Shown in pieces: positions 5,442 to 64,000 of a DNA stretch of 64,000 bases. The stretch is from an uncultured Ignavibacteriales bacterium. Lineage in GTDB: Bacteria; Zixibacteria; MSB-5A5; GN15; FEB-12. Under the pieces are notes generated by a model. The model had not been told where the DNA came from. It did not search any database and was given only the letters and a program-made list of their open reading frames with translations. Both the position numbers and the translations under genes were made by a program. The number at the start of each line of letters is the position of its first letter. The first letter of the stretch is position 1. The DNA lies in the NCBI GenBank assembly GCA_964464605.1, contig CAYXJN010000001.1:379068-443067 (forward strand), read 5' to 3'.

Positions 5442-5443
5442 CT

Positions 5444-46868: not shown

Positions 46869-48005
46869 ATGCCCTTTATCGCCAAAGTCCCCGGTCTTGC
46901 AGGCCGAACATGGACGTTCCTTTTAGCCACGTTTTTAGTACTCGGTCTTAGTGCTCATCGCGCCGAGGCTATTCCAACAGTAGTCGTAAAAGTAGCAGAT
47001 ACGACAGCACCCAATGGTCAGATAAACACGCAGATTCTGGTTTTCCTCCAGAATACTGCTGATACCATTGCCGGTTTCAAAATCCACCTGCAGCTTGATA
47101 ACCCCGACATCATGAAATTCCAGGGTGACAGCGGTACTGCTATCGATACCACTTACTGGGATTGCACGGCGTTTCAAGGTCCGAACTGCGTGGAATCTAC
47201 CTTAACGGTTCCAACCGCCAACTGGGATTTCCGCCATATCGATACCAGTGCTATTTTGATTGGTAACTTTGATACGGTTGGCACCCGTACCGCCGGATGG
47301 CAGTATGTAACCTCCCGTTCGCTTGGCGGTCAGGGGTACGACATCCTACTGGTCGGGCTTGCGGATGACCCGTTTGTAGCGGGTACAAAGCCGGGTATCG
47401 CGCCCAATCTTCCGGGTAACGTGCCGCTTCTTAAGCTGCTTGCCGACGCCAAGTATCTTTGCGATACCAGCTTGACGGGTGACGAAAGAAAGACCAACAT
47501 CGTCATTCAAACTTCGTTTGTGAATAATTTTGGTTTGTCGAAACCGAACGGTTCTGCTATCGGTATTGCATACCAGCATTATACGGACACCAATTATTAT
47601 TCCTGTAATCAGTGGGCAGGTTCGAATTGTATCGGAGGATGGACACAGGTATCCACCCCGCCCTTCGACTCGCTCGCTATTCGCAACGATTCATTCCCCT
47701 ATATTGATCCGAACGTAGTACTCGTCGACAACGGTTCGCTGACGATTTTGCCGGGCGCCTGTTATGTGTGCGGCGACATTAACAACAATTCCGCGCACAA
47801 CGTTACCGTTGCCGATTTAGTGTATCTTGTTCAATTTTTGTTTAATAGCGGTCCGGCGATTCCTTCGCCGGTCAATCGTGCGAACGTCAACTGCTCGGTC
47901 AATACCCAGGGAAACCCGACAATAACGGTCGCCGACTTGGTATACATGGTGCAGTTCCTGTTTAACGGCGGAGCAGTGCCCTGTGCGAACTGTCCGGTCG
48001 GTTAA
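46869..48005 (+). CDS. secreted cohesin-like + dockerin protein
   Basis: GAGGAGG RBS; VVVKVADTTAPNG..VFLQN..IAGFKIHL cohesin-like strands; duplicated CGDINN..TVADLVYLVQFLF / ANVNC..TVADLVYMVQFLF dockerin. Confidence 0.75.
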   Translation: MPFIAKVPGLAGRTWTFLLATFLVLGLSAHRAEAIPTVVVKVADTTAPNGQINTQILVFLQNTADTIAGFKIHLQLDNPDIMKFQGDSGTAIDTTYWDCTAFQGPNCVESTLTVPTANWDFRHIDTSAILIGNFDTVGTRTAGWQYVTSRSLGGQGYDILLVGLADDPFVAGTKPGIAPNLPGNVPLLKLLADAKYLCDTSLTGDERKTNIVIQTSFVNNFGLSKPNGSAIGIAYQHYTDTNYYSCNQWAGSNCIGGWTQVSTPPFDSLAIRNDSFPYIDPNVVLVDNGSLTILPGACYVCGDINNNSAHNVTVADLVYLVQFLFNSGPAIPSPVNRANVNCSVNTQGNPTITVADLVYMVQFLFNGGAVPCANCPVG

Positions 48006-48055
48006 TTAATGCGAAACTAATGTTGACTGAACATTACGAGTTTAGATAGAAGACT

Positions 48056-48081
48056 GCCCTGTCGTTGAAAAACGACGGGGC
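48056..48081 (+). other. intergenic stem-loop with GAAA tetraloop, no U-tract
   Basis: GCCCTGTCGTT-GAAA-AACGACGGGGC. Confidence 0.7.
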
Positions 48082-48306: not shown

Positions 48307-50940
48307 ATGAAACGCATTTCGTTTATCCTTACAGCGCTCATGCTTCTTTCTTTTGGGCTGGCCAATGGCCAAAACCATGTCTCACTGGATGCGGTAAGTC
48401 CGTACATCGGTGTTGACCAAAAGATCCCGGTTCCTGCCGCCAACGTGGCCTTCACGTGGCGCTGGCAGTGGCAGACCGACCCGGGCGACGGCTTGGGCGG
48501 CTTTTCAATTGCGTACGATGTCTATTCTGCGGACGGCGCTACATGGACATCATTAGCCGGTACTTTTCACGGTAATTTCGGTCCGGTGTTGAGCGATTTC
48601 GGTTCGATGGGTAGCAACTATTTCATCAACAATTTCAGCGTCAACGGTGCAGGTAATGACACTGTTAGCTTCGCTGGATTTGATGGACCTGCCCCGTACG
48701 GAACGTTTGAATCTTTCAACAACCTGGCTACCGTTCTGACAACCGGTGCCGTTGCCGGCAGCGAAGCTGGCAAGCACATCTGCGTTGACTCAGTAACTGC
48801 CTACGGCGTAGGTGGTGACTGGTCATTCGGTGGTGGTATCACGTTCGGTATTTATACTCCGGATTTTGGTACTGGCCCGTTTGCCTCTCACTACACTGCC
48901 GGTCAAGGTTACTGTTTCGAACTGTATATTCCGCCAAACTTGAACCCTGCGTTCTCGGGTGGTACCTGTGTTGATTTCGGTGGCGATCACTGCGCCATTC
49001 TGCAGCACCAGTTCCAGGCCCAAGATCCGGACAACAACTTACCGCTGACTTTCTCGATCGTTTCCGGTCCTGGCACGATCAATGCGAACACCGGTGCCTG
49101 GTCATATCAGCCGACTTGCGCTGACGTGGCTGCTTCCCCGATCGCGTTGACTGTTCGCGTTACCGATGCTCTCGGCGGTTTTGCTGATTGCGCTGTTGAC
49201 GTTTCCGTCACCAACGTTGCCCCGGCCATTACTTCCGGTTGCGGCACCGTTACGGCGATTGGTAAAGGTCTCTCTGGTAATACCGACCTGAACGCAGCCG
49301 CTAACGACTGCGATCCGGTTGTCTGGTCACTTGGTAGCATCTCTCCGGCTCCGGTCGGAACGATCAGCATTGATGGTAACGGAACCGTTACGTTCAATAC
49401 CGATGATCCGGGCGACGGTGGCATTCTGTACACGGTTGAAGTGATTGCTTCTGACTGCGCTGGCGCGGCTGATACCTGCACCGTTCAGTTCGACGTTCTC
49501 ATTCTCACTCCGTTCTCTGTCAAGATCGAAAAGACCCACAACACGATTCAGGGTCAGCATGAATACGTTGACGTTACTTTAGAACAGGGTTCACAGCCGC
49601 TCGGAGGTTTCGACTTCCTGATCAGCTATGACGCTTCTGCTCTGCAGTTCGTTTCTGCCATTCCTGGTGGAGACCTTTATGACCAAGCTCCAGATGGTTG
49701 CGGTTGGGAATATTTCACCTATCGCTACAGCGCGTTTGGTAACTGCGGTAACGCCTGCGCTTCCGGAAAAGTCCGCGTGACCGGTATTGCCGAGACCAAC
49801 AACGGCCCGAACCACCCGGATTGCTTCCTGCCTGGTACCTTGCCGGCCACTATGTTTACTCTTGATTTCTTAGTCAGCGATAACCGCACGTTCGAATGCA
49901 TGTACGCTCCGGTTCGCTTTGTCTGGTTCGATTGTGGTGACAACACCATTTCTAACCCGCTTGGTGATACCCTGTACATTTCACGCAACGTGTTTGACTT
50001 CGACCTCATTGGTAACATTGCCGACTCTACCGGCACCTATCCGACCTGGAATGGAGCTCAATTATGCGACAATCCGAATCCGGACAAACCGGATCCAGTT
50101 CGCTTTATTGACTTCTATAACGGCGGTGTTGACATCGTTTGCGCCGACTCAATCGACGCCCGCGGTGACATCAACTTGAACGAAATTGCCAACGAAATCG
50201 CTGACGCGGTTCTCTACAGCAACTACTTCGTTTATGGTCTTGGTGTATTCAATGTAAATCTTCAGGGTCAGATCGCTGCCTCTGATGTGAACGCCGACGG
50301 TATTGCGCTTTCCGTTGCCGACTTGGTCTACTTGATCCGTGTCGTTATCGGCGATGCCAATCCGTTCCCGAAGGTCGCCCCGGCTTCTATCGAAGCTACC
50401 TACACGGTTGCCGCTGGTGAAATCTCTATTGATGCCACCGTGGCTGCGGCCGCTATCGTTGTTGAAGGCAATGTCACCCCGACCTTGCTGGCTAACAATA
50501 TGAATATGATCTCCAACTTCGATGGTACTAACACCCGCATCCTGGTTTACACCAATGTGGATCGTAATTCCATCGAAACCTTCTCCGGTAACTTCCTCGC
50601 CGTCAACGGTAACGTGATCTCAGCTGAGTTCGCGACTGCCGAAGGTGGCGTTGTGAACGCCGCGGGTAAACTGGTTGCTAACAAGTTCGTCTTGAACCAG
50701 AACTACCCGAATCCGTTCAACCCGAAGACCCGCATCTCCTTCAATCTCCCGAGCGCTTCTCAGTACTCGCTGACCATCTACAACATCACCGGTCAGAAAG
50801 TCAAAGAAGTCTCAGGTACTGGTGTTGCTGGTATCAATGAACTCGATTGGGATGCTACGAATGAAGCTTCCGGTATCTACTTCTACAAGTTGACCGCCGG
50901 TACCTTCTCTGAAACCAAGAAGATGGTATTCCTGAAGTAA
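48307..50940 (+). CDS. secreted multidomain protein: N-domain, two cadherin/Ig-like modules, Cys-rich cohesin-like domain, dockerin-like pair, T9SS type-A-like CTD
   Basis: AGGAG RBS, signal peptide; AQDPD..LTFS..G.IN..TG.W; PLGGFDFLISYDASAL; RGDINLN..ASDVNADG..VADLVYLI; LNQNYPNPFNP..SGIYFYKL..ETKKMVFLK. Confidence 0.85.
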   Translation: MKRISFILTALMLLSFGLANGQNHVSLDAVSPYIGVDQKIPVPAANVAFTWRWQWQTDPGDGLGGFSIAYDVYSADGATWTSLAGTFHGNFGPVLSDFGSMGSNYFINNFSVNGAGNDTVSFAGFDGPAPYGTFESFNNLATVLTTGAVAGSEAGKHICVDSVTAYGVGGDWSFGGGITFGIYTPDFGTGPFASHYTAGQGYCFELYIPPNLNPAFSGGTCVDFGGDHCAILQHQFQAQDPDNNLPLTFSIVSGPGTINANTGAWSYQPTCADVAASPIALTVRVTDALGGFADCAVDVSVTNVAPAITSGCGTVTAIGKGLSGNTDLNAAANDCDPVVWSLGSISPAPVGTISIDGNGTVTFNTDDPGDGGILYTVEVIASDCAGAADTCTVQFDVLILTPFSVKIEKTHNTIQGQHEYVDVTLEQGSQPLGGFDFLISYDASALQFVSAIPGGDLYDQAPDGCGWEYFTYRYSAFGNCGNACASGKVRVTGIAETNNGPNHPDCFLPGTLPATMFTLDFLVSDNRTFECMYAPVRFVWFDCGDNTISNPLGDTLYISRNVFDFDLIGNIADSTGTYPTWNGAQLCDNPNPDKPDPVRFIDFYNGGVDIVCADSIDARGDINLNEIANEIADAVLYSNYFVYGLGVFNVNLQGQIAASDVNADGIALSVADLVYLIRVVIGDANPFPKVAPASIEATYTVAAGEISIDATVAAAAIVVEGNVTPTLLANNMNMISNFDGTNTRILVYTNVDRNSIETFSGNFLAVNGNVISAEFATAEGGVVNAAGKLVANKFVLNQNYPNPFNPKTRISFNLPSASQYSLTIYNITGQKVKEVSGTGVAGINELDWDATNEASGIYFYKLTAGTFSETKKMVFLK

Positions 50941-50960
50941 TTCAGGTTTTCCTCTGATTC

Positions 50961-50996
50961 CCCCGGAAAGGTTAACCCCTTTCCGGGGTTTTTTTT
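50961..50996 (+). terminator. intrinsic terminator
   Basis: CCCCGGAAAGG/CCTTTCCGGGG then T8. Confidence 0.9.
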
Positions 50997-51212: not shown

Positions 51213-52073
51213 ATGAAACGTAGTGCAATTTTCTCATTCATTACTTTTCTCATGGTCGCAAATATCAGCGTGGGGCAAAACGCGGTGTCAATAGATTCGA
51301 TTTCTGGTTTTATGGCACCGAACAAGATACCCGTCGGGCAGCCGGTTCGATTTTCATTCCGTTACACCGGGAGTGCGCCATCCGGGGAGCTTTTGTTTGG
51401 TTTCACTACCGCCTTTGATTTGTATTCTCCGGGCGGAGCTACGTGGACGGTCCCGACGTTCACTGTGGCAAACAATCCGGCGGCAATGGGACTGCGGAAT
51501 GAATGGGGGCCAATAAATTTTTTCATTAACTCATATAATGCCAACGGTAGCGGTCATGATACGCTTTCACTATTTGCCAGCGACTATACCGATCCGTGGG
51601 AAGGCATAACGTCCTTTGATGACCAATTGATGGATCTAACGGTTCCTGCATTTCCGCAAGCTGATACAGGTAAGGCAATTTGTATTGATTCATGCTCCTG
51701 GTTTTCATCGGGAATGTTTCATTGGTCATTTGCTACTGTTAAAGAAGGTGAGGGACAACTTTTTGAACGTCCTGCAACGTATGGCACTGGTCCTTATGCC
51801 GCGAATTACACCGCCGGAATGGGATATTGTTTTACACTAGCCACTCCGCCGTACATCTGTGGCGACATTAACAATAACGGGACTGTAACCGTTGCAGATA
51901 TGGTGTATTTGATTCAATATTTCTTTAATTCCGGACCGGCCATTCCTGCGCCTACCGCGCGAGCGAATGTGAACTGTCTGGGTGATCCAAACCGACCGAC
52001 GATTGCTGATAATACTTACTTAGTGAGCTATTTGTTTAACAACGGCCCTGTGCCGTGCGCGAATTGCCCGTAA
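51213..52073 (+). CDS. secreted protein: N-domain paralogous to 48307 plus dockerin paralogous to 46869
   Basis: FDLYSPGGATW..ICIDS..GTGPYAANYTAGMGYCF; CGDINNNGTVTVADMVYLIQYFFNSGPAIP..GPVPCANCP. Confidence 0.8.
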   Translation: MKRSAIFSFITFLMVANISVGQNAVSIDSISGFMAPNKIPVGQPVRFSFRYTGSAPSGELLFGFTTAFDLYSPGGATWTVPTFTVANNPAAMGLRNEWGPINFFINSYNANGSGHDTLSLFASDYTDPWEGITSFDDQLMDLTVPAFPQADTGKAICIDSCSWFSSGMFHWSFATVKEGEGQLFERPATYGTGPYAANYTAGMGYCFTLATPPYICGDINNNGTVTVADMVYLIQYFFNSGPAIPAPTARANVNCLGDPNRPTIADNTYLVSYLFNNGPVPCANCP

Positions 52074-52114: not shown

Positions 52115-55100
52115 ATGAGCCGTCGCATATTCGCAGTGGCCTTTCTTGTGTTTATTTTTTGTTCTGCGGTTCATGCAGAGAATGCAATTTCATTTTGGGG
52201 TTCTTCCAGTTCAGAAACCAATACGATTGAAGTTGGTAAATGGGTTGCGTTTACATTCCAAACGCGTACTGAGTTTGATACCTGCGACGGATGGGAGAGT
52301 TTTTCCAATACCTTTGATTTGTATTCACCAGATAATGCTATCTGGGCTGCTGCCACGCAGGAACACCTCTTTGGTTCGGGCTACCTGTTTGAACTGGCTC
52401 GCGATTGGGGACGTAATAATTTAGGAATGAATACCTATAACTGGAATGGCAACGACCACGATACACTTGAAGTGTTCGGGCGTGACGGTATTGCTCCCTT
52501 CGGGCAAATAGCTTCGTTTACCGGATATCTTCATATCACCATAGACAGCTTCTCAAGCTCTGATGTCGGAAAAACATTTTGCATCGATTCCTGTACGACC
52601 ATTCAGCGCAAGAAAACATGGATATACGGAGCATACAAAAGTGATCGGTGCTATTCCCCCGATTTTGGCGGCGGGCCGCATGCATATGCATATACGCCGG
52701 GCCAGGGATATTGTTTTACGTTGGTTCCTCCGCAAACCTGGGCACCGACAATCATCACCTGTCCCTCCATTCCAATACAATTGTATTTTGATTCGACACA
52801 ACATTTCACTGTTGAAGCAACGAAGGGTCACTGCGATTCGATGTTTTGGTCAATCGGTGCTGTCAATCCGACTCCTTCCGGTTCATTGTCAATCAACCAA
52901 AATGGAGAAGTGACCTTTACTCCCAATGAGCAGGATAGATTTAACCTTTATAATGTCGAAGTGATCGCTTCTGATTGCTCAGGTATGGCCGATACTTGTG
53001 TTGTCTACTTTGAGGTGCTTCCCGCGACACCCTACAGCATCAAAATCGAAACCGTACATAACAGCCTTTTTGGTGTTAACCAGAGTGTCGATGTTACCCT
53101 GACAGGCGGGAGCCAGCCACTGGGCGGGTTTGACCTCGTTATCGCTATTGATTCAGCTATGCAATTCGTCGATGTCACTCCCGGCAATCCATTCTTTGGC
53201 GACTCCTCCTGCGCGTGGGAGTATTTTACCTACCGCTATCAACCATCCGGCGGAAGTTGCAATGGTGGCACGTGTGATTTTGCGCGCATACGGGTTACCG
53301 GCATAGCTGAAACAAATAATGGCGCGGTCCATCCGAGTTGTTTTTTACCCGATACGCTCCCGGCAACGCTGTTCACGCTTAATCTTATTCCCGGGTTTCA
53401 GGATCCCTGTCACTCTCAGTGCGAGTTTTATCCGATTCGCTTTATCTGGCTTAATTGCGGAGACAATACTATTGCGAATCCCGCAGGCGACACGCTTTAT
53501 ATTTCCCGGCAGGTATTTGATTACGCTACCGGAAACAGTAATATCGCCGATTCCACCGGAACATATCCGACTTGGAGAGGAGCGCAGCTTTGCGACAATC
53601 CGAACCCTAACAAACCGGACCCGGTTCGCTTCATTGATTTCAATCATGGCGGGATCGATATGGTCTGCGCTGATTCCATAGATGCGCGGGGGGATATCAA
53701 CCTCAATGAAATTTCATACGAGCCCGGCGATGCAGAACTGTTCGTGAAGTACTTTATGGAAGGGGTTAGTGCTTTTGTTATCAATACCCAGGGACAAATA
53801 GCGGCGTCAAATGTAAATGGGGATACCATCCCGCTTTCCGTTGCTGATTTAGTGTATCTTATCAATGGCATCATCAAAGACAGTGTTCCTTGTCCGATCC
53901 CTTCACCTCCGCCTATTACCACAGACTATCATATCTGTAACGACACAGTTTCAGTGAGTGAAGCAGTTGGAGCGGCATTTTTTGTCGCGAAAGGGCATGT
54001 TATGCCAACTTTGCTTTCTACCAATATGGAGATGGCATACAGCTTCGATGGTGTGAATACGCGAATACTTGTGTATCCCGATCCGTACGCCGAGACATTA
54101 CAATCATTTTCCGGATATATTATTGCGGATATCGGCACGCTTGTTTCAGCAGAGTTTGGCTCACCGGAAGGTGGTTTGGTCAATGCGCAGTTGGATATCT
54201 TGGATTGTGGTAAACCGGCCCCTGATACGACTTCGCTGACCGTTCGCATCGAAAAAACGAAGGGTACTTATCAAGGACAGGATGAATGGGTTGATGTTAT
54301 TCTTGATAAAGGGACACAAGAGCTAGGCGGTTTTGATTTTTTGATTGCCTATGATAATCGCGCGCTTCGTGTGGATGCGGTCATGCCGAACCGGGAACTG
54401 TTTTATGATTCGACCGGGTGCGGATGGGAATATTTCACCTATCGGTATAGTGAATTCGGTGACTGCGGCAGCGCCTGCGCGACGGGAAAAATTCGTGTGC
54501 TCGGCATTGCCCATGATAACGCCGGAATCGGATATCCTCGCTGTTTCATTCCGCCAACGCTTCCGTTTGTATTATTTAGTTTCAATTTCCTTGTGACCGA
54601 TGACCGGACGTATGAATGCGCGTTTCTGCCAATTCGCTTTGTCTGGTTTGATTGCGGAGATAACCTGTTTGCCAACGTTCCGGGTGATACCGTGTTTATG
54701 TCTCGGATGGTGCAGGATACCCTGGGCGGTAACAATATTGCCAACACATCAGATACCTATCCAACCTTTGCAGGGGCACAGCAGTGCGCTGATCTGCAAA
54801 GATCAGGTTGGATTCGTAATGTAGATTTTATCAGCGGTGGTATACAGACTCAATGCTATAATACCATAGATGCGCGTGGCGACATTAATCTGAATGAAAT
54901 AAGCAACGAGGTAGAAGACTTTACATTGTTCAGCACGTACTTCCTGTATGGTATTGGTGTTTTCAACGTTAATGTGCATGGGCAAACGGCAGCGACCGAT
55001 GTCAACGCTGATGGAAAAGAGCTCACGCTTGCGGATTTAGTCTATCTTGGTAAAGTAGTGGTTGGTGATGGTCACCCCTTCCCGAAAACATCGCCACCCG

Positions 55101-56115: not shown

Positions 56116-58581
56116 ATGACTGAACAACTCTTTTTGCCAGGAAAGGTGTGCATACAATTGCGTAATTGGTGTTTAACCGTTTGGGCAGTTTTATTACTGA
56201 CCTCGGCCAGTGTCTTTTCGCAAACCGATCAATTCGGGGCACAGGATCGTATCTATCTGGATAAAGTAGAAGTCACCCGCGGCAAGCAGGTGCAAGTCGG
56301 GGTCTATATGACGAACGATGAACCGATTGCTTCTGTTTCGGTGCCACTTACTTACAATCCTCAGTACCTGACGCTTTCCTCGGTCTCTTTTGAAGGTTCC
56401 CGCGGTGCGCATATTGCCACCAAGATGGTAGCGCCGGAACAGGTCAATTCTGCATCCGGACATTTCTTAACCGGTATCGTTTCCATTTCCGAAGAGCCGA
56501 TCGAAGCTGGTGACGGTTTGTTGTTCACCGCTACTTTCACCGTTTCGCCGAGTGCACCGGTAGGGATAGAAGTAATGCTTGACTCCCTTTTCTATCCGCC
56601 CGGTGGTGAGCTTTTGTTAGTGGAAGCAACGTCTGCTGCAATTATTCGCCCGACTTTCGAAGCTGGACAAATTACCGTAGCGGCTGCGAATATGCCTCCG
56701 GTTATTCAGACCTCCGCTTCCGTTTATATTTTGGAAGGGGATAGTCTGAAACTTCCGGTTATCGCCAAAGATATCAATAATGATCCGGTGCAGCTTACCT
56801 GCAGCCGTTCATTGTCCGGTGCTGCTTTCACGCAGACCGGCGGTCACGGCCTGTTCCGTTGGAAACCGGATTTCCTCGGTGCGAATTCCGCTGATGGTTC
56901 TCCGTTTACCATTCAATTCTGGGCGACGGATGGCATCCGTGCTACCACGCTGGATGTAGCAGTACATGTTATCAATAAAAACCGCAAGCCGACCGTTACG
57001 CTGCTTGATTCAGTTGCCGTCGATGCCGGTCTTCCGATTTTGGTAGATATCACCTACGGTGATCCGGATTATGATACGACAACGCTGACAATTGTCAGCG
57101 CACCCGCCCAGTCACAGGTGGGGTACAGCAGTGCGTTTCCGGTGAATGGGCTGCGCCAGGCAACGTTTGAATGGAATACATCATTCGCCGATAGCGGCAA
57201 ACAGACCATACAGATTATCGCGACCGATTCACACGGTGCAGCCGATACCTCAGAAGTACTGCTACACGTACTGCCGGTTTCATTGTTCAACTTTTCTGTT
57301 GTCGATACCAATGTAAATCCGGCTGGCAGCGTTGATATTCCTATAGCGCTTGAAAATCTGGCACCAATGTCGTCGTTCTCGTTGCTTCTACACATTGATC
57401 CAACAGTGTTGACGCTTCATTCTGTGCAACGAGCCGGTACCCGTTCTGCAAATTTTGCGAGTTTCAGCTCAACCGTTAATTACGGCGGTGTCATTGGTGA
57501 TGTATTGATGCAGGGAACAGTTGGTGCACAGCCGTTGGCAGTAGGAAATGGCACATTGCTCAAACTGCGTGTTATCGCGGTTGGAAATGTCAACTATAGT
57601 GGTCTAAGCATTCCAGTACGATTCAATCAATCGATGTTGAATATGGTCAAAGATTCGACCAATAATACTGTGCCGAGTGATCAGTTGGATTATGAGGATG
57701 GCGTTGTCTTTATCAATAGCCTTGGGGATGTACTTCTCGGTGATATCAATTTGAATTTGATACCGTATGAAGTCGGCGATGCTATTTATTTTACTCAGTT
57801 TTTTATCAATCCCACGTATGCGATAATGAATCCGCTGCAGTTGGCAAATTCCGATATCAATCAGGATGAATTGGTGCCTACTATTGCAGATTTGGTCTCG
57901 CTTATTCGGGTGATCTCCGGTGATTTGACCCCGCCAGTCAGTAATTCCGGCGGATTAGCCTCCGTCCAAATCGTTACCAATCCCAATGGAACACAGACAA
58001 TTCATTATTCTTCGAATGTCCCGCTTGGAGCCGTATTAGTCAAAGGTGTCTCAACCGGTACGCTTGCTCCTGAAGGTGTATCAACGCCAACGAGCATGCT
58101 GGTTGATGTTGGCACCGAAAATAATGAAGATCGAATTTTAGTCTACAGCATGCAGGGTGATACGCTTCCGCAGGGAACACATGCGCTGGTAACACTGCCG
58201 TCCGGGGCAAATTTTTCCGCCTCTTCTGTTGAATTTTCAAGCGCTGACGGACAGATTGTTCAAGTTGCCCTAAGCGGCGGCTTCTTGAAAGAAACATTAC
58301 CGACCGCGTTTGCCTTGCAGCAGAATTATCCGAATCCGTTCAATCCGGAAACAAATATTGCATTCGATATTGCGATACCCGGACGGGTGCGTCTTTCGGT
58401 CTATAACCTGCTCGGCCAGCAGATTCGTGTGTTGGCGGAACGAGAATATCCTGCCGGTCATCATTCGGTTGTCTGGGACAGCCGGGATGATTCCGGTGCG
58501 CCGGTTTCATCGGGCGTTTATTTCTACCGCCTGGAAACAGAAAGGCAATCATTCACCAAGAAGATGACTTTGGTGAAATGA
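56116..58581 (+). CDS. scaffoldin-like protein: cohesin-like, two cadherin-like, cohesin-like, dockerin-like, FlgD-Ig/T9SS-like CTD
   Basis: G.QVQVGVYMTN..PLTYNP..GDGLLFTATF; GSVDIPIALEN..GNGTLLKL; LGDINLN..NSDINQD..IADLVSLI; LQQNYPNPFNP..VWDSRDDSG..SGVYFYRL..KKMTLVK. Confidence 0.8.
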   Translation: MTEQLFLPGKVCIQLRNWCLTVWAVLLLTSASVFSQTDQFGAQDRIYLDKVEVTRGKQVQVGVYMTNDEPIASVSVPLTYNPQYLTLSSVSFEGSRGAHIATKMVAPEQVNSASGHFLTGIVSISEEPIEAGDGLLFTATFTVSPSAPVGIEVMLDSLFYPPGGELLLVEATSAAIIRPTFEAGQITVAAANMPPVIQTSASVYILEGDSLKLPVIAKDINNDPVQLTCSRSLSGAAFTQTGGHGLFRWKPDFLGANSADGSPFTIQFWATDGIRATTLDVAVHVINKNRKPTVTLLDSVAVDAGLPILVDITYGDPDYDTTTLTIVSAPAQSQVGYSSAFPVNGLRQATFEWNTSFADSGKQTIQIIATDSHGAADTSEVLLHVLPVSLFNFSVVDTNVNPAGSVDIPIALENLAPMSSFSLLLHIDPTVLTLHSVQRAGTRSANFASFSSTVNYGGVIGDVLMQGTVGAQPLAVGNGTLLKLRVIAVGNVNYSGLSIPVRFNQSMLNMVKDSTNNTVPSDQLDYEDGVVFINSLGDVLLGDINLNLIPYEVGDAIYFTQFFINPTYAIMNPLQLANSDINQDELVPTIADLVSLIRVISGDLTPPVSNSGGLASVQIVTNPNGTQTIHYSSNVPLGAVLVKGVSTGTLAPEGVSTPTSMLVDVGTENNEDRILVYSMQGDTLPQGTHALVTLPSGANFSASSVEFSSADGQIVQVALSGGFLKETLPTAFALQQNYPNPFNPETNIAFDIAIPGRVRLSVYNLLGQQIRVLAEREYPAGHHSVVWDSRDDSGAPVSSGVYFYRLETERQSFTKKMTLVK

Positions 58582-58626
58582 TACTGTGTGTGAAGATATG
58601 TATATGTATGTGATAGTTTGGAGGTA

Positions 58627-61320
58627 ATGATGCGGTTGCTGAAATTCCTTGCATTTTTGCTGGTATTGCAACTGATAGGCAGCTGGGTACCCGAATTGAA
58701 AGCGCAGGTAGTTGAAAATTGTGCGTTTGTTAACTTGAATCGGTTATCCACTCGTGATACTGTCCGTGTAAGACGTTTTACGGGAAGACCGGGAGATACG
58801 GTCTATATGCCGGTCCATATGGCTACTGACTCTGCTGTTGCTGGCTTTCAGTTTATTTTTCGCGTCGATACCGTTAAGCTGGAACCGACCGGAAAAGCGT
58901 ACGATACAACTTTAGTTGGTCCGGAATTGTTCTTTAGCAATCAAATGGTGGGGAGATTGCGAAACGCACAAAATGAAATCGACGTACAATTTCCGCCGGC
59001 TGGAAGTAGAACCGCATTTTTAACCCAGCTTTCGTATAATCCCTTTGACTCCGGTGCGCTTTTGGCTTCCTTCTTTCCACCAATACCGCTTGATTCTCAG
59101 AGTGTGTCGGTGACCATTGACCCGGGTCGGGATATCATTTTCTATATTCCTTTCATTGCCAATCCGACGATGCAGCATAAAGAATCACTCTTTATCAGAT
59201 TTCAAGAATCGGATCAGTTCTATCTCGATTCGAACAACCTTCCGGTTCAAACCGGCTGTCGACGAACGCAAATTGCGTCCGCATGGAACAGCGGATCGGG
59301 TATTACTAACCCTACATTATATCCGAGGACGTTTGGCGCTTGGTTTGTTGCCGACACAGCGCCGCTACCGAGTATTGTCGCGTTTAGTACCAGCGCCACG
59401 AATATTAATTCAGGCGGTGCTGCCATTCTGAGCTGGACAGTCACGAATGCAGATTCGGTCACGTTATCAGTAAATAGTATTAACATCTTGAAAACGACGG
59501 AACTTACCAGCGATACCATCGTTCAGCCGACATCGACAACGACCTATTTGTTGACTGCCTACAACAACTCTGGAACAGCGACAGCCAGCCAAACAATCAC
59601 AGTTGGCACAGGCGGCGGTGGCGGCGGCGGCGGTGGCGGCGGCGGGAGTACTAATTATGGGCCAGATATTTTCAGGGATCCGGAAGACAGAACGATTACA
59701 ATAAATCAATTCGAACCGCTCACCATTCGAGTCACGGCTGATGATGAAAACGGTGATTCGATCGTGCTTAATACTATGGGAGCACTACCCGCAAACGCAG
59801 CATTTTTAGGTGACTCGACAAACGGAACAGGTACCGTCGAACGAATGTTCACGTTTACCCCGGATGCTTCGCAAACGGGAGCGTTTACTATTATTTTCAA
59901 AGCCAGGGATGAATTCGGCGGTTCATCGGCTAATTATCTTACTATTGTCGTCAATCCGCTTGATGATGCACTGTTTACTACGTCGGATACTGTTCCTGGC
60001 CGCAGAGCAGTCGGCGGTGTACCGGGAAGCAGTCAGATACTTTTCCCGATTAATTTTTTCACTGCACAGCCTATTTATGGTATTCAGTTCGATTTGACGT
60101 TCGACAGCTTACAGCTTGAAATAGACTCAGTATTTACCACTGCTCGTACCCCGGGATTTGTAGTGTACGATAACATCGGCCAAATTCCCGGTGTTGTGCG
60201 TGTCGCGAGTTTCCATTTGAGTGGTGACAGTATGCGCACCGATACCATTCCAATTTTGTATGCGGCGTTCTCGGTTGACTCGCTTGCGCCTCCGGGACTT
60301 TACGACGTTTGCATTAAAAATGGTTTTGAAGCCATTGATCCGAATCCGAATGTGTTCGGCGTTTCAGTCGAAGGTTCCTGTGGCGTTCTGCAGGTCGATC
60401 AATTCGGTGACGTTAACTTAGACCGGGTGGTAAACGTTGTTGACGTAGTGAACATTATTGGTGTCATACTCGGTAACTTCTCGCTTACTCCTCGTCAGTA
60501 CGCAGCCGGTAATATTGTTACCGATGCAAATATTGACGTGTTCGATATGGTTGGTATTCTGAATGTTATTTTCAACATTCCTCTGGTTCCGACTGCCGGC
60601 ATGGAAATACCTGGTCTTATTGCAGAGATGTCACTCAACTACCAGAATCTGGAACAGGGAGAATCAGATGTCATCCTGCTTGATTTAGATGCACCGATGG
60701 ATGTGGCCGGTGTCGAATTGGTTATTAATTATGACCGGACTGCCGTCTCGTTAGGTACACCTAAAATTCCAGACGGCGCTAACGGGTTGGTACTGCAAAG
60801 TCAGGATCTCGGACAAGGGAAAATGAAAGTTCTGCTTACGCCAACCAATCCCCTGACCACGAGTGACTTTATCCAACGCGGTAAGAGCACATTCTTGGAA
60901 ATCCCGATTACGGCGCGTCAGGATATTGCCAGCGATGATGAAACGCAGTTGCGCTTGAGCAAGGCCTTGCTTTCTACAGCATCAGCTGAAGCGTTGAAGG
61001 TTGGCAATGTAACTGCGCCAGTGCCCGCAGGATTTACGTTACGGCAGAATTATCCGAATCCGTTCAACCCGAGCACGAATATCGAATTTTCAATCGATGT
61101 CGACGCGGGTGTCGGTCAAAAGAATGTTCGACTTGATATTTTCAATATCCTCGGTCAACGGGTGAAAACCTTAGTGAACCGGCCGCTCAGCACCGGAACC
61201 TTCAGGGAAGTGTGGGATGCCACCAACGAAGCTGGCGAGAAGGTGTCGACAGGAATGTATCTTTATCGACTGGAAGTCGGAGATGCAACACAAACTAAAA
61301 AGATGATATTTTTGAAATAG
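58627..61320 (+). CDS. scaffoldin-like protein: cohesin-like, Ig, Gly12 linker, cadherin-like, cohesin-like, dockerin, cohesin-like, FlgD-Ig/T9SS-like CTD
   Basis: PGDTVYMPV..VAGFQFIF; IYGIQFDLTFD; GDVNLDRVVNVVDVV..NIDVFDMV; VAGVELVINYD; LRQNYPNPFNP..WDATNEAG..TGMYLYRL..KKMIFLK. Confidence 0.8.
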   Translation: MMRLLKFLAFLLVLQLIGSWVPELKAQVVENCAFVNLNRLSTRDTVRVRRFTGRPGDTVYMPVHMATDSAVAGFQFIFRVDTVKLEPTGKAYDTTLVGPELFFSNQMVGRLRNAQNEIDVQFPPAGSRTAFLTQLSYNPFDSGALLASFFPPIPLDSQSVSVTIDPGRDIIFYIPFIANPTMQHKESLFIRFQESDQFYLDSNNLPVQTGCRRTQIASAWNSGSGITNPTLYPRTFGAWFVADTAPLPSIVAFSTSATNINSGGAAILSWTVTNADSVTLSVNSINILKTTELTSDTIVQPTSTTTYLLTAYNNSGTATASQTITVGTGGGGGGGGGGGGSTNYGPDIFRDPEDRTITINQFEPLTIRVTADDENGDSIVLNTMGALPANAAFLGDSTNGTGTVERMFTFTPDASQTGAFTIIFKARDEFGGSSANYLTIVVNPLDDALFTTSDTVPGRRAVGGVPGSSQILFPINFFTAQPIYGIQFDLTFDSLQLEIDSVFTTARTPGFVVYDNIGQIPGVVRVASFHLSGDSMRTDTIPILYAAFSVDSLAPPGLYDVCIKNGFEAIDPNPNVFGVSVEGSCGVLQVDQFGDVNLDRVVNVVDVVNIIGVILGNFSLTPRQYAAGNIVTDANIDVFDMVGILNVIFNIPLVPTAGMEIPGLIAEMSLNYQNLEQGESDVILLDLDAPMDVAGVELVINYDRTAVSLGTPKIPDGANGLVLQSQDLGQGKMKVLLTPTNPLTTSDFIQRGKSTFLEIPITARQDIASDDETQLRLSKALLSTASAEALKVGNVTAPVPAGFTLRQNYPNPFNPSTNIEFSIDVDAGVGQKNVRLDIFNILGQRVKTLVNRPLSTGTFREVWDATNEAGEKVSTGMYLYRLEVGDATQTKKMIFLK
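59611..59646 (+). repeat. (GGN)12 poly-glycine linker
   Basis: ggcggcggtggcggcggcggcggtggcggcggcggg, in frame. Confidence 0.9.
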
Positions 61321-61341
61321 GACAGGGAGGAAGAACAAACG

Positions 61342-64000
61342 ATGCGTATTCGAATTCTCATCGCAGGCTTGCTTCTTAGCCTCGGACTCGCCATCGGAGC
61401 GGCTGCCCAAACAGCGCCGCCGGTGCTCGATCCAATCGGGCCGCAAGGTCCCGTGGCTGAAGGAGGCAACCTGGCCTTTGGCGTGTCGGCCTCCGATGCT
61501 GACGTCACCATACCGATTTTAACTACTTCGACGCTTCCTCCCAATGCGACCTTTGTCGACAATTTGGACGGAACTGGTTCGTTTAGTTTCTCGCCGGATT
61601 TCACGCAGGCTGGACCGTTTATCATTACGTTCTATGCCGCTGATCCGATAACGCCGGATATCGATTCAGAACAGGTTACTATCACCGTAACCAACGTGAA
61701 TCAATTGCCGATTCTTGCGACTATTTCGCCGCAGGGTCCGGTCAATGAAGGTGCGGTGTTGAACTTTGGTGTTACCGCATCCGATCCGGATACGGATATC
61801 CCAGTGTTGACTACCTCACCGCTGCCGGTCAATGCAACGTTCATCGATAACAACGACGGCACCGGTTCGTTTAGTTTTTCACCTGATTTCACACAGGCCG
61901 GAAACTTCAGCATTACATTCTATGCGACCGATGCTGTTTCACCGACCGATATCGACTCCGAAGTCGTTTCGATCACAGTTACGAACGTGAACCAACTGCC
62001 GATTCTTGCGACTATTTCGCCGCAGGGTCCGGTCAATGAAGGTGCGGTGTTGAACTTTGGTGTCAGCTCAACCGACGCNNNNNNNNNNNNNNNNNNNNNN
62101 NNNNNNNNNNNNNNNNNNNNNNNNNNNNNNNNNNNNNNNNNNNNNNNNNNNNNNNNNNNNNNNNNNNNNNNNNNNNNNAACTTTGGTGTCAGCTCAACCG
62201 ACGCCGATGGTGTTGATCCGGTGTTAACCACGTCAACCCTTCCGGCTAATGCATCTTTCGTTGATAACAACGACGGTACCGGCTCGTTTAGTTTCTCACC
62301 TGACTTCACACAGGCTGGAACGTTCAATATTACGTTCTATGCGACTGACGGTGCGCTTCCGGCTGATATTGATTCCGAAGTCGTTTCGATTACCGTAACA
62401 AACGTGAACCAATTGCCGATCCTCGCGACAATTTCCCCGCAAGGTCCGGTCAATGAAGGTGCTGTTCTTAACTTTGGCGTTAGTTCAACCGATGCTGACG
62501 GTGTTGATCCGGTATTGACGACATCAACCCTTCCGGCCAATGCTTCATTCGTTGACAATAACGACGGCACCGGCTCATTCAGCTTTTCGCCTGACTTCAC
62601 ACAGGCCGGAACGTTCAATATTACGTTCTACGCGACTGACGGTGCGCTTCCGGCTGACATTGATTCCGAAGTCGTCTCGATTACTGTAACGGATGTCAAT
62701 CAGGCGCCGGTGTTGGCGACAATCAGCCCGCAAGGTCCGGTTGTTGAAGGCAACACCTTGAACTTTGGTGTAACAGCCACCGATGGTGATGCGGTCACGC
62801 CGATTCTTACGACATCCACCTTGCCGACGAATGCAACATTTGTTGATAATAACGACGGTACCGGTTCGTTCAGCTTCTCGCCGAATCTGACCCAGGCTGG
62901 TGTGTATAACATTACGTTCTATGCTACCGACGGCGCAGTTCCATCATCAATCGACTCAGAAGTAGTCAGTATTACCGTTACCGACGCCGGCAACCAGACG
63001 CCGGTGCTTGCGACCATTTCGCCGCAAGGTCCGGTGACGGAAGGGAACACGCTGAACTTTGGCGTATCCGCAACCGATGCCGACCTAGTTACCCCGGTTC
63101 TTTCAACCTCGGCGCTTCCGGCAAACGCGTCGTTTATTGATAACAACGATGGTACCGGTTCGTTCAGCTTTACGCCGGGCTTCACGCAAGCGGGCGTATA
63201 TAACATCACGTTCTACGCAACGGATGGCTCAGTACCCTCTGCAATCGATTCTGAAATCGTGAGCATAACGGTCGATGAAGCCGGCAACCAAGAACCGGTA
63301 CTCGCGACAATCTCGCCGCAAGGTCCGGTAACGGAAGGTAACACATTGAATTTTGGTGTATCTGCTTCCGACTTGGATCTGGTTGTGCCTGTTCTTACCA
63401 CTTCAGCGCTTCCGGCAAACGCCTCGTTCGTTGATAACAACGACGGCACCGGATCATTCAGCTTTACGCCGGGCTTCACACAGGCGGGCGTATATAACAT
63501 CACGTTCTACGCAACGGATGGCTCAGTACCCTCTGCAATCGATTCTGAAATCGTGAGCATAACGGTCGATGAAGCCGGCAATCAAACGCCGGTACTCGCA
63601 ACTATTTCGCCGCAAGGTCCGGTTGTCGAAGGTAGCACACTCAACTTCGGCGTATCTGCAACCGATGCTGATTTAGTCACGCCAATTCTGACTACCTCGA
63701 CCCTTCCGTTAAATGCAACTTTTGTTGATAATAGTGATGGCACCGGTTCATTCAGCTTCTCGCCGGATGTTACCCAGTCAGGTATTTACACGATTACGTT
63801 CTATGCGACCGACGGTGTTGTTCCGGCGGCCATTGATTCCGAAATAGTAAGTATCACGGTTACCGATGCCGGTAACCAGGTTCCCGTGTTGGCCACTATC
63901 TCGCCGCAGGGTCCGGTGACGGAAGGAAACAGCCTGAGCTTTGGCGTATCGGCAACCGATGCTGATTTAGTCACGCCGATTCTTTCGACTTCCGCGCTTC
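61342..64000 (+). CDS. large secreted protein of tandem cadherin-like/Ig repeats, 3' end outside window
   Basis: GGAGG RBS; signal peptide MRIRILIAGLLLSLGLAIGAAAQ; open frame on both sides of the N gap; absent from the ORF track. Confidence 0.9.
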   Translation, partial: MRIRILIAGLLLSLGLAIGAAAQTAPPVLDPIGPQGPVAEGGNLAFGVSASDADVTIPILTTSTLPPNATFVDNLDGTGSFSFSPDFTQAGPFIITFYAADPITPDIDSEQVTITVTNVNQLPILATISPQGPVNEGAVLNFGVTASDPDTDIPVLTTSPLPVNATFIDNNDGTGSFSFSPDFTQAGNFSITFYATDAVSPTDIDSEVVSITVTNVNQLPILATISPQGPVNEGAVLNFGVSSTDXXXXXXXXXXXXXXXXXXXXXXXXXXXXXXXXXXNFGVSSTDADGVDPVLTTSTLPANASFVDNNDGTGSFSFSPDFTQAGTFNITFYATDGALPADIDSEVVSITVTNVNQLPILATISPQGPVNEGAVLNFGVSSTDADGVDPVLTTSTLPANASFVDNNDGTGSFSFSPDFTQAGTFNITFYATDGALPADIDSEVVSITVTDVNQAPVLATISPQGPVVEGNTLNFGVTATDGDAVTPILTTSTLPTNATFVDNNDGTGSFSFSPNLTQAGVYNITFYATDGAVPSSIDSEVVSITVTDAGNQTPVLATISPQGPVTEGNTLNFGVSATDADLVTPVLSTSALPANASFIDNNDGTGSFSFTPGFTQAGVYNITFYATDGSVPSAIDSEIVSITVDEAGNQEPVLATISPQGPVTEGNTLNFGVSASDLDLVVPVLTTSALPANASFVDNNDGTGSFSFTPGFTQAGVYNITFYATDGSVPSAIDSEIVSITVDEAGNQTPVLATISPQGPVVEGSTLNFGVSATDADLVTPILTTSTLPLNATFVDNSDGTGSFSFSPDVTQSGIYTITFYATDGVVPAAIDSEIVSITVTDAGNQVPVLATISPQGPVTEGNSLSFGVSATDADLVTPILSTSAL
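61411..64000 (+). repeat. tandem 288-294-nt (96-98 aa) coding repeats, at least 8 full plus 1 partial
   Basis: Units start about 61411, 61699, 61990, 62407, 62698, 62992, 63286, 63580, 63874; consensus NQxPVLATISPQGPVxEG..SDxD..LPxNAxFVDNNDGTGSFSFSPDFTQAG..FYATDG..IDSEVVSITV. Confidence 0.9.
62079..62178. other. assembly gap (100 N) within the repeat array
   Basis: The 26 nt before the gap (62053-62078) are repeated right after it (62179-62204). Confidence 0.95.

Follow-up and report, generated by a model that had tools for sequence, protein, structure and literature searches.

Our results revealed, in an uncultured Zixibacteria bacterium, a run of seven adjacent genes (P1 to P7) that likely forms an operon for the scaffold of a surface-assembly system based on cohesins and dockerins and tied to type IX secretion (T9SS). 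The best reading of the locus is as an operon of T9SS-anchored scaffoldins, adaptors, and adhesin, which resembles a cellulosome scaffold in the way it would work but is not a cellulosome.

Layout of the operon

The genes lie in a 64,000-nt stretch of DNA (the window; contig CAYXJN010000001.1, positions 379,068 to 443,067). Their open reading frames (ORFs) run along its + strand from 46833 to 67899, with P7 extending beyond the window:

46869..48005, + strand: P1, adaptor-like secreted protein (likely start, 46869; longest ORF, 46833-48005)
48307..50940, + strand: P2, predicted T9SS-anchored stalk protein
50961..50988, + strand: strong terminator-like hairpin directly 3' of P2 (11-bp stem with 8 GC pairs; T run)
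51213..52073, + strand: P3, adaptor-like protein without a T9SS C-terminal domain (CTD)
52115..55660, + strand: P4, predicted T9SS-anchored protein
56116..58581, + strand: P5, predicted T9SS-anchored scaffoldin-like protein
58618..61320, + strand: P6, predicted T9SS-anchored scaffoldin-like protein
61342..64000, continuing to window-equivalent 67899, + strand: P7, cadherin-repeat protein of 2185 aa without a CTD

An earlier reading of the letters alone (the sequence-only reading) had described seven consecutive secreted proteins on one strand, and by a crude hydropathy test, all seven ORFs indeed begin with a hydrophobic, signal-peptide-like stretch. It had also proposed four T9SS-like C-terminal domains; a scan of the seven proteins with TIGR04183 (T9SS type-A CTD; cut-off, 23 bits) placed four of them above the cut-off, namely P2 (51.1 bits), P4 (47.9), P5 (40.6), and P6 (30.3), and not P1, P3, or P7. 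Domain-family scans bore out the cadherin-like repeats (cadherin/Big_9 over cut-off in P2, P5, P6, and P7) and the apparent lack of a glycoside hydrolase or other catalytic motif, as they detected no catalytic family in any of P1 to P7 and no CAZyme domain in the cluster. A dockerin could be assigned in each of the seven, and cohesin-fold modules were verified alongside it in P2, P3, P4, P5, and P6, the same number of two-module chains as had been read originally; P1 may be a sixth. The host, read as a diderm and likely uncultured, is indeed an uncultured diderm of the FCB group; the best taxon-bearing homologs are named Zixibacteria or GN15.

Contigs from RNA libraries (four runs from two studies) covered P2 at 100% identity, a weak hint of expression. 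These contigs end at 50871, and the hairpin after P2 begins at 50961. Terminator-like sites across the region (27) were not clearly above those in shuffled sequences (19.6; SD, 4.5).

The cohesin-dockerin-X cassette of P2 and P4

The modules of these two proteins are as follows (+ strand):

P2, N-terminal part: signal peptide; cohesin-like fold, 48364-48963; two cadherin/Big_9 domains, about 49018-49497
P2, C-terminal part: cassette cohesin, 49495-50145; class-II dockerin, 50146-50379; X beta-sandwich, 50389-50673; type-A CTD, 50704-50937
P4, N-terminal part: cohesin-like domain, 52181-52735; cadherin-like domain, about 52811-53014
P4, C-terminal part: two tandem cohesin/class-II dockerin/X cassettes, 53018-54190 and 54230-55381; type-A CTD, 55421-55657

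In both proteins, a cohesin, a divergent dockerin, and a beta-sandwich are fused into a cassette N-terminal to the CTD (cassette HMM domain scores in P4, 415.6 and 470.8 bits); public data contain 1,674 representative relatives of this unit. Pfam Cohesin stayed below its cut-off in P2 (18.7 bits) and P4. An AF2 model of the P2 cassette (pLDDT, 84.4) found cohesins as its best matches (Z up to 16.0; rmsd, 2.0 Å over 143 residues), with solved structures from cellulosomal Bacillota at the top. Specifically, the best 20 matches in a search independent of Foldseek were all cohesins (Z, 10.9 to 16.0; next, at most 8.7), as were the top Foldseek matches. The N-terminal domain common to P2, P3, and P4 is cohesin-like too: in the AF2 model of the P2 domain (pLDDT, 87), the best 17 matches were cohesins (Z, 9.3 to 11.8), which also ranked first in Foldseek. 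The cohesin-like modules of the sequence-only reading thus stand, through these P2 models and through Pfam Cohesin matches over cut-off in P5 and P6.

Pfam Dockerin_1 remained below its cut-off in all seven cluster proteins, with no match at all in P1, P2, P4, and P5. The dockerin-like motifs were recovered by other means: a class-I dockerin HMM, derived from 16 dockerins of the same genome that Pfam had confirmed, matched P1, P3, and P7, and the P2/P4 cassette dockerin aligned to those 16 with an hhalign probability of 97.1. The dockerins fall into two classes, class I in P1, P3, and P7 and class II in the P2 and P4 cassettes, where the final Asp of both loops comes one position later than in the class-I dockerins of the genome. 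At least 120 homologs of P2 were among the matches listed, most of them full-length, and its cadherin and CTD stretches match PDB sequences. An alignment of 51 cassettes showed 8 invariant or nearly invariant Cys and conserved Asp/Asn loop residues, and it is from these Cys and loop residues only that we infer disulfide stabilization and Ca2+ dependence of the cassette.

The same alignment contained many invariant residues in both the cohesin and the dockerin. Such co-conservation would suit an intramolecular clasp, in which the two modules bind each other within one chain and stiffen a membrane-near stalk, with no intermolecular assembly; they are, moreover, always adjacent, about 6 residues apart in the model (last strand ending at 214, first Ca-binding loop from 221). 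We nevertheless consider a clasp quite improbable. The pTM is only 0.59 despite the high pLDDT of the separate domains, and therefore the model fixes no confident interdomain arrangement of the cassette; the linker may be too short for canonical binding geometry; and other proteins carry tandem arrays of up to six cassettes.

Scaffoldin-like proteins and their CTD-less neighbors

The remaining five proteins have the following modules (+ strand):

P5: Pfam cohesin 1, 56257-56568; Big_9/cadherin, 56668-57279; Pfam cohesin 2, 57292-57591; dockerin, 57739-57936; spacer; CTD, 58327-58566
P6, N-terminal part: weak cohesin-like start, 58762-58890; poly-Gly linker; cadherin/Big_9, 59680-59952
P6, C-terminal part: Pfam cohesin, 60043-60327; degenerate dockerin-like segment, about 60385-60567; CTD, 61051-61308
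P1: signal peptide; conserved Cys-rich N-terminal domain, about 46971-47753; C-terminal class-I dockerin, about 47763-47996
P3: signal peptide; N-terminal cohesin-like domain, 51276-51851; class-I dockerin, 51852-52070
P7: signal peptide; long array of cadherin/Big_9 repeats of about 97 to 98 aa; C-terminal class-I dockerin, outside the window (L032, about 3672-3896)

Pfam Cohesin scored 51.3 bits over two stretches of P5 (29.1 for the second alone) and 44.7 bits in P6 (Big_9, 25.9). The P5 dockerin was matched by both dockerin HMMs (E < 1e-4). Weaker scores came from the N-terminal cohesin-like start of P6 (16.7 bits) and its dockerin-like segment (Dockerin_1, 13.2 bits, below cut-off); the class-I HMM matched four of six P6-like orthologs.

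P1 likely starts at 46869, because the Met there is shared by all eight aligned orthologs, to which P1 is 30 to 45% identical with invariant Cys. Its N-terminal domain had no significant match in the searches made, and its dockerin matched the class-I HMM at E 4.9e-28 (Pfam dockerin in five of the eight orthologs at E ≤ 0.1). The dockerins of P1 and P3 are 63% identical, that of P3 scoring E 1.7e-26 with the class-I HMM and 22.7 bits with Pfam Dockerin_1 (cut-off, 22.9), while the N-terminal domain of P3 is homologous to that of P2 (36.7% identity over 218 aa; E 5e-31). P7 contains a 100-N assembly gap at 62079-62178; its array scored up to 165 bits with Big_9 and up to 87 bits with Cadherin_5, and its dockerin scored 19.6 bits with Dockerin_1 (below cut-off) and E 5.7e-15 with the class-I HMM.

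Tagged proteins and secretion machinery of the genome

A genome-wide dockerin census and a search for T9SS core genes, both suggested in the sequence-only reading, gave positive results. The class-I HMM matched 63 of 7148 ORFs, 5 of which are cluster proteins. The other 58 thus carry the dockerin class of P1, P3, and P7, and they include 14 peptidases (8 Peptidase_S8, 2 Trypsin_2, 2 M14, 1 M43, and 1 M12B) as well as 2 GSDH, PhoD, lysyl-oxidase-like, galactose-oxidase-like, FG-GAP, TSP3, SBBP, and lectin proteins; none of the 58 matched a glycoside hydrolase family. These tagged ORFs lend support to the display-platform half of the earlier inference. As for T9SS, SprA_N (78.2 bits) and PorU (711.7 bits; cut-off, 420) were found, along with 28 CTD matches in the genome. 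PorV-like matches reached 70 bits, far under the 250-bit equivalog cut-off, and GldM had no match in the genome, nor in the control genomes.

The dockerin sits at the extreme C-terminus, the usual place of a CTD, in 59 of the 63 ORFs; where scanned, dockerin ORFs show no CTD there, and all cohesin carriers examined have one. The operon might, on this evidence, be a secretion adaptor, with tagged proteins binding CTD-bearing cohesin carriers in the periplasm and crossing the outer membrane piggy-back via T9SS. We give this idea very little credence. We know of no precedent for piggy-back export through T9SS, dockerin folding needs Ca2+, and the genome has a T2SS-like cluster (E ATPase, F platform, two pseudopilins, and secretin) that, judged by its gene content, could serve as an ordinary export route for proteins without a CTD.

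Conservation across the phylum

The operon belongs to the conserved core of the phylum. The P2 query matched all 121 sampled genomes, Dockerin_1 was matched in 61 of 61 and Cohesin likewise (60 over cut-off), and the gene order P1-P2-(P5)-P6 was kept in seven of eight loci examined. Over the 61 genomes, Pfam-type cohesins numbered 1 to 10 per genome and dockerins 3 to at least 87, and the two did not scale together. Given this, and since the operon was found even where a genome has only 3 to 8 dockerin matches, it may have a structural role independent of enzyme display.

Taken further, the operon could build a structural or adhesive coat with no enzyme display, its proteins binding only one another: the dockerins of P1, P3, and P7 on the cohesins of P2, P4, P5, and P6, and cassettes on cassettes. 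Fibrils or an S-layer-like mesh would result, by which cells would adhere to particles or to one another via cadherin-like repeats, of which P7 is made. The dockerins of the enzymes would dock elsewhere, for example, on a separate, stand-alone 288-aa cohesin-CTD protein (C5:3998-4864). Beyond the presence of the operon at any dockerin load, a coat would be in keeping with the other cassette bearers of the genome, all non-catalytic Ig-repeat giants (3503, 2288, and 867 aa), and with the operon's 8 dockerins and at least 9 cohesin-fold modules, roughly equal numbers that make closed self-assembly possible. However, P1, P3, and P7 share their dockerin class with 58 other tagged ORFs, and sockets that take them would probably take enzymes too; we hold an enzyme-free coat to be unlikely.

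Comparison with known systems

Cellulosomal Bacillota (examples are the Ruminococcus flavefaciens sca cluster and Acetivibrio cellulolyticus ScaA-D) have tandem scaffoldin genes, a small number of cohesins against many dockerins, two tiers of assembly with two cohesin-dockerin classes, single-cohesin adaptors with a dockerin, a non-catalytic binding protein attached through its dockerin, and SLH or sortase anchoring. The Zixibacteria system likewise has several scaffoldin genes in tandem, two dockerin classes, and few cohesins relative to dockerins, with P1 and P3 resembling the adaptors and P7 the binding protein. It differs in its predicted anchoring to the outer membrane of a diderm by a T9SS CTD, the lack of a CBM, peptidases in place of glycoside hydrolases among its tagged ORFs, the direct fusion of cohesin to dockerin, and the shifted final Asp of the cassette dockerin loops.

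Cohesins and dockerins outside cellulose degradation, some in one protein, were reportedly surveyed by Peer et al. in 2009, and the Archaeoglobus fulgidus cohesin 2xdh and Clostridium perfringens GH84C/GH33 cohesins (2jh2, 2vo8, and 2w1n) were among our fold matches. In contrast to those isolated proteins or toxin complexes, the Zixibacteria operon is phylum-wide and T9SS-coupled, and the 2.8-Mb genome encodes about 60 putative tagged partners for it. The T9SS-anchored fibrillar adhesins of Bacteroidota (SprB/RemA type) are also long surface proteins that are built of Ig/cadherin repeats and end in a T9SS signal; to our knowledge, they do not carry cohesin-dockerin pairs. Both P2 models also matched 9ifr, the CLIPPER domain of a fibrillar adhesin from a Gram-negative bacterium (Z, 8.7 to 8.9), the margin in favor of cohesins being large for the cassette (16.0 versus 8.7) and smaller for the N-terminal domain (11.8 versus 8.9).

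For Candidatus Stygibacter (Cloacimonadota), a cellulosome-like complex has been proposed on in silico evidence, without experimental test, with a single 3,755-aa scaffoldin (tandem cohesins, CBM2/CBM3, and a T9SS CTD) and dockerin-tagged S8/S53 and C25 peptidases, GH18, and GH57 as cargo (PMC8542988). Both hosts are FCB-group diderms with a non-catalytic, scaffoldin-like protein that combines cohesin and a T9SS CTD, and with C-terminal dockerins on secreted peptidases; the Zixibacteria system differs in lacking CBM and GH, in its conserved multigene operon with a dockerin in every member, in its fused cohesin-dockerin-X cassette and cadherin-like spacers, and in its presence in all sampled genomes of the phylum.

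A model for the assembly

In the scaffold operon that we favor, P2, P4, P5, and P6 would be exported by Sec and then T9SS, and the PorU sortase would cleave their CTDs and fix them to the outer membrane on its external side, where cadherin-like spacers would keep their cohesin sockets clear of the membrane. Class-I dockerin proteins without a CTD would plug into these sockets in a Ca2+-dependent manner, namely, the adaptors P1 and P3, the P7 fiber, and the 58 further ORFs. The membrane-proximal cassette of P2 and P4 would form a second, separate plug-socket pair that links neighboring stalks or braces the stalk. We infer the surface location, every cohesin-dockerin pairing, and the Ca2+ dependence in this scheme. 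Judging from their sequences, P1 to P7 are likely to keep tagged proteases and other secreted proteins, dozens in all, at the cell surface.

Organization of the gene cluster and its flanks

Seven consecutive plus-strand genes, P1 to P7 (46833–67899, with P7 extending past the end of the window), encode what we read as a cohesin–dockerin assembly anchored by a type IX secretion system (T9SS) and resembling a cellulosome scaffold in its working, in which we infer every pairing between modules. As calculated from the ORF coordinates, the successive intergenic gaps from P1 to P7 measure 301, 272, 41, 455, 36, and 21 bases, the GC content of the region resembles that of the rest of the window, and all seven proteins begin with a hydrophobic stretch by a crude hydropathy test. 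P7 is 2185 aa long, ending at window-equivalent 67899, and a 100-N assembly gap (62079–62178) falls inside its near-identical repeats of 97–98 aa, so the repeat number of the assembled P7 may differ from the true one. Searches with the bacterial cadherin-like and Big_9 repeat families (PF17963, PF17892, and PF17803) placed Big_9 over its 23.6-bit cut-off in P2 (27.5 bits), P5 (31.3 bits), and P6 (25.9 bits), while segments of P7 scored 80.1 and 165.3 bits for Big_9 and 72.2 and 87.0 bits for Cadherin_5. A profile of P2 homologs also matched protocadherin-15 (E 1.3e-7). The surrounding features are as follows.

31929–35047, plus strand: pair of neighboring genes for SurA-like periplasmic chaperones/PPIases, with SurA_N and Rotamase domains
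35405–38056, plus strand: 883-aa secreted protein (Beta_helix, Ig_Rha78A_N, and a C-terminal class-I dockerin)
38133–39644 and 39647–40738, downstream of the 883-aa protein: AAA_5 ATPase, then VWA-domain protein (MoxR/VWA-type pair)
42825–43811, plus strand: PorV-like ORF, 328 aa (25.2 bits for NF033710, whose cut-off is 250; Pfam DUF5723 at E 4e-4)
50961–50988, after P2: strong terminator-like hairpin
about 68467–69846 in window-equivalent coordinates (4467–5846 of locus L032), downstream of P7: 460-aa ORF, open at the contig end

The SurA-like pair may be relevant to the biogenesis of outer-membrane or secreted proteins. The PorV-like ORF sits 3 kb upstream of the operon, and its resemblance to PorV, the T9SS shuttle and outer-membrane barrel, is weak. 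The 460-aa ORF had no Pfam match at E<=0.01.

Assembled metatranscriptome contigs from four libraries in two studies span about 48066–50871 of P2 with no mismatch, and one RNA-library contig overlaps part of P1; such contigs neither prove transcription nor rank genes. Over P3 to P6 they are tiny end fragments on which no claim rests. Across the region, the promoter scan totaled 24 (21.9, sd 5.0, in shuffles) and the terminator scan 27 (19.6, sd 4.5, in shuffles), neither clearly above expectation.

Cohesin-type modules

The sequence-only reading had described cohesin-like beta-sandwiches in this cluster, and these proved to be real. The Pfam Cohesin family (PF00963, gathering score 24.1 bits) was exceeded in P5 (51.3 bits over two stretches, the second alone reaching 29.1) and in P6 (44.7 bits), whereas P2, at 18.7 bits, fell under the cut-off, and the PF00963 matches listed include none in P4 and none in the N-terminal domains of P1 to P4. 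That the modules might not adopt a cohesin fold at all, as the same reading had allowed, was checked by structure prediction, and both modeled P2 modules matched cohesins first. Specifically, we modeled with AF2 residues 397–798 of P2, which make up the cassette (cohesin, class-II dockerin, and a further beta-sandwich, X), using 50 homologs and obtaining a pLDDT of 84.4. Its cohesin module aligned to 4uyp_A with a VIA Z of 16.0 and an rmsd of 2.0 A over 143/144 residues; all the top Foldseek matches of the first 215 residues of the model were cohesins (E 2e-8, TMt 0.77); and in a scan of 48,161 chains that was independent of Foldseek, rows 1–20 were cohesins (Z 10.9–16.0), with the next best at 8.7. 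The second module, a domain of about 190 aa at the N-terminus, is common to P2, P3, and P4 and matches nothing in Pfam. Its P2 model (pLDDT 87, pTM 0.86) aligned to 5nrk_A with a Z of 11.8 and an rmsd of 2.8 A over 142/143 residues; cohesins ranked first in Foldseek and filled rows 1–17 of the scan (Z 9.3–11.8), with pilin and adhesin folds close behind at about 8–9. As modeled, both P2 modules thus have a cohesin-type jelly-roll beta-sandwich fold, the margin over pilin-type folds being smaller for the N-terminal domain. The two are alike in fold only, with an hhalign probability of 0.1 between their sequences.

Counted by fold, P4 bears three cohesin-type modules, and P2 and P5 bear two each. 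For the N-terminal domain of P1, nothing was found in Pfam, the matches from a profile search of PDB sequences were confined to the dockerin end of the protein, and comparison with two cohesin profiles gave hhalign probabilities of 19.9 and 3.4. The ESM Atlas offered a weak lead, a rank-6 cluster with Cohesin on 13% of its members.

Two classes of dockerin

With the gathering score of Pfam Dockerin_1 (PF00404, 22.9 bits) as the operational threshold, the excised dockerin segments of P3 (22.7 bits), P7 (19.6 bits), and P6 (13.2 bits) all fell short, and those of P1, P2, P5, and both in P4 had no match; elsewhere in the host genome, 17 of the 33 matches listed exceeded it. We built a class-I HMM from 16 Pfam-confirmed dockerins of the host genome, which recognized P1 (E 4.9e-28), P3 (E 1.7e-26), and P7 (E 5.7e-15), and a profile of the cassette dockerin aligned to the same 16 with an hhalign probability of 97.1 (E 6e-11), the 58 aligned columns covering both repeats. 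Hence, the paired motifs that had been called dockerin-like are borne out as dockerins by homology, although all seven miss the Pfam cut-off. The dockerin of P5 was matched by both dockerin HMMs (E<1e-4). That of P6 is degenerate and was not matched itself, but the class-I HMM did match four of six P6-like orthologs.

Two classes can be distinguished by sequence. Class I is C-terminal and often Cys-flanked, and is found on P1, P3, P7, and the enzymes of the genome. Class II is internal, directly after a cohesin, and is found in P2 and P4 (twice), with a related form in P5; its closing Asp, as read from the sequences, comes one residue later than that of class I in both loops. As read from the sequence, the cassette dockerin would comprise two loops rich in Asp/Asn with a helix after each; the loop residues are invariant in 51 sequences, and the AF2 model places three helices in this part (235–251, 256–264, and 274–285).

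Sorting signals and export machinery

The T9SS-like C-terminal signals noted earlier in four proteins lie in exactly P2 (51.1 bits), P4 (47.9 bits), P5 (40.6 bits), and P6 (30.3 bits), all over the 23-bit cut-off of TIGR04183, which with PF18962 represents the type-A C-terminal sorting domain (CTD). Each match ends no more than four residues from the stop codon, and the profile of P2 homologs matched the solved CTDs 8glk_D and 8glj_D. TIGR04183 detected no CTD in P1 or P3, and P7 terminates in a dockerin rather than a CTD. The search for T9SS core genes that this pattern called for was productive, as the host genome (2.8 Mb in 18 contigs) encodes a 2042-aa ORF with SprA_N (78.2 bits) and a PorU sortase scoring 711.7 bits for NF033707 against an equivalog cut-off of 420. 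PorV-like barrels in this genome scored only under the cut-off (best 70.2 against 250 bits), and GldM (TIGR03517) was uninformative, as it had no match in the host genome or in any control genome. The genome also contains two secretin loci, one with PilMNO and the other with a T2SS-type ATPase, platform protein, and pseudopilins; the latter could give proteins that lack a CTD an ordinary route outward.

Our tally for the host genome comprises 28 CTD matches, and nine CTD proteins also bear a cohesin-fold module. Two proteins encoded outside the operon have both a CTD and a cohesin match: a minimal cohesin-plus-CTD protein of 288 aa (contig C5, 3998–4864; Cohesin 23.6 bits against the 24.1-bit cut-off) and one of 1551 aa that has BACON repeats as well (contig C3, 94003–98658). 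In other genomes sampled from the phylum, many Pfam cohesin matches lie in open frames of about 280–330 aa.

Dockerin-tagged proteins as proposed cargo

The class-I HMM matched 63 of the 7148 ORFs of the host genome, with the dockerin at the extreme C-terminus in 59 of them. The cluster accounts for five of the 63. The remaining 58, scanned against Pfam (31 at E<=1e-3 and 27 at E<=1e-4), include 14 peptidases (eight S8 subtilases, two trypsin-like, two M14, one M43, and one M12B), two glucose/sorbosone dehydrogenases, one each of PhoD, lysyl-oxidase-like, and galactose-oxidase-like proteins, and many FG-GAP, TSP3, SBBP-propeller, and lectin proteins, while about 20 have no family besides the dockerin. 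Two are beta-helix proteins, one of them the 883-aa protein of the window, which is counted as cargo because it ends in a class-I dockerin. No glycoside hydrolase family appeared in any of the 58. Within the cluster, family HMM scans found no catalytic family in any of P1 to P7, and no carbohydrate-binding module (CBM) family was listed for them. The earlier statement that the cluster has no recognizable catalytic motif therefore holds for P1 to P7.

The cassette

In P2, residues 397–877 consist of the cohesin, the class-II dockerin, X (a beta-sandwich of about 95 aa), and the CTD; in P4, the cohesin, class-II dockerin, and X are present twice. Across 51 aligned sequences, the cassette retains eight invariant or nearly invariant Cys along with invariant Asp/Asn loop residues. 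In the host genome, a cassette HMM found it at the C-terminal end of proteins of 3503, 2288, and 867 aa, all of non-catalytic Ig-type repeats, with partial copies in ORFs of 493 and 271 aa. The 867-aa protein (locus L050; contig C15, 113–2713) occupies nearly the whole of a 3.2-kb contig and shares 61% identity with P2 over the last 630 residues at its C-terminus; paralogous cassettes such as this one probably break the assembly. X gave hhalign probabilities of <=1.7 against cohesin, N-terminal-domain, CTD, and dockerin profiles. We also considered X as a cohesin, on one VIA row that aligned the whole cassette with a cohesin dyad, and rejected this since the fit (rmsd 18 A) was too loose.

When the cassette (402 aa) was used to search a set of 1.84 billion representative proteins, 1,674 matched at E<=1e-3 and, at the stricter E<=1e-30, 839. 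In the metagenomic relatives P0121, P0125, and P0134, a single chain holds as many as six matches in tandem, so arrays longer than the two copies of P4 exist. Complete cassettes with a CTD also occur on short MAG contigs labeled Calditrichota and Ignavibacteria (L035 and L036; 34–35% identity to P2). Judging by these sequences and labels, either the cassette also exists outside Zixibacteria or these contigs were binned wrongly.

Conservation across Zixibacteria

A search with P2 at E<=1e-20 found matches in every one of the 121 phylum genomes sampled, with at most seven candidates scored per genome. The best E-value was <=1e-120 in 21/21 genomes of the same order and in 43/44 of the same family, falling off to about 1e-23 for the remotest families. 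Among the best 120 of 345 P2 homologs, most are full-length at 40–54% identity, and taxa, where named, are Zixibacteria (Zixiibacteriota), GN15, or just "bacterium". Further, Dockerin_1 was found in 61/61 sampled genomes (from 3 to at least 87 matches each), as was Cohesin (1–10 matches each, over the cut-off in 60).

We compared eight loci that carry a P2 ortholog; six belong to genomes of the same family and the other two to genomes of the same order. A P1 ortholog lies directly upstream in 7/8 and a P6 ortholog downstream in 7/8; a full-length P5 ortholog is present in 4/8; and a P7-like repeat giant appears in 2/8 before the fetched DNA ends. One genome (locus L042) has three tandem P2 paralogs. 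None of the eight loci holds a counterpart of P3 or P4 (51213–55660), which look as if they arose by lineage-specific duplication of the N-terminal domain and cassette of P2. By tblastn (E<=1e-5), the upstream PorV-like, AHSA1, methyltransferase, HMA, LMWPc, VWA, and AAA genes had no match in these loci; on this comparison, the conserved unit begins at P1, and the genes upstream of it are not syntenic.

Discussion

In the arrangement we propose, P2, P4, P5, and P6 would be anchored stalks that bear sockets, P1 and P3 would be adaptors, each with a single socket and a single plug (the P1 socket being putative), and P7 would be a long plug-in fiber. The class-I-tagged peptidases and other tagged proteins would then be interchangeable cargo. 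The membrane-proximal cassette may link stalks, brace the stalk that carries it, or both. A bolder version of this idea is that cassettes polymerize between neighboring stalks, with the cohesin of the next chain taking the dockerin, into a two-dimensional mesh that covers the outer membrane, depends on Ca2+, and is braced by disulfides; this would be a novel S-layer substitute, universal in Zixibacteria, that doubles as a pegboard on which each cell carries ~60 dockerin-tagged proteins (proteases, oxidoreductases, and adhesins), and we regard it as rather unlikely. Complex prediction for two copies of the P2 cassette scored 0.00 against a mark of 0.42, which bears neither for nor against self-association.

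The system shares with the cellulosome the traits of a scaffold, namely non-catalytic proteins with multiple cohesins (P4, P2, and P5), the adaptor-like P1 and P3, and an anchoring signal on four proteins. It departs from the cellulosome in three respects: glycoside hydrolase cargo, a CBM, and Gram-positive anchoring are all lacking. Among published proposals, the closest is the cellulosome-like complex described in silico for Ca. Stygibacter (Cloacimonadota; PMC8542988). Given this Cloacimonadota precedent, the idea of such an assembly is not new. Our literature search found no publication that joins Zixibacteria and dockerin, and none that joins dockerin, cohesin, and Latescibacteria; one publication mentions both Zixibacteria and the cellulosome, each a single time.

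The fused cassette, represented by 1,674 representative clusters in public data without annotation, offers a new set of high-affinity protein connectors that are probably orthogonal and whose binding we infer, as well as a natural test of whether cohesin–dockerin pairs can form polymers. Zixibacteria are uncultured and widespread in sediments, soils, and sludge, and, to our knowledge, essentially nothing is known of their cell biology. A conserved operon that makes the T9SS anchor a cohesin–dockerin pegboard, with the matching tag on about 2% of the ORFs of a small genome, would be a central rather than an accessory feature of their surface. The cargo points to surface-bound degradation of protein, not cellulose, and thus bears on the processing of detrital protein.
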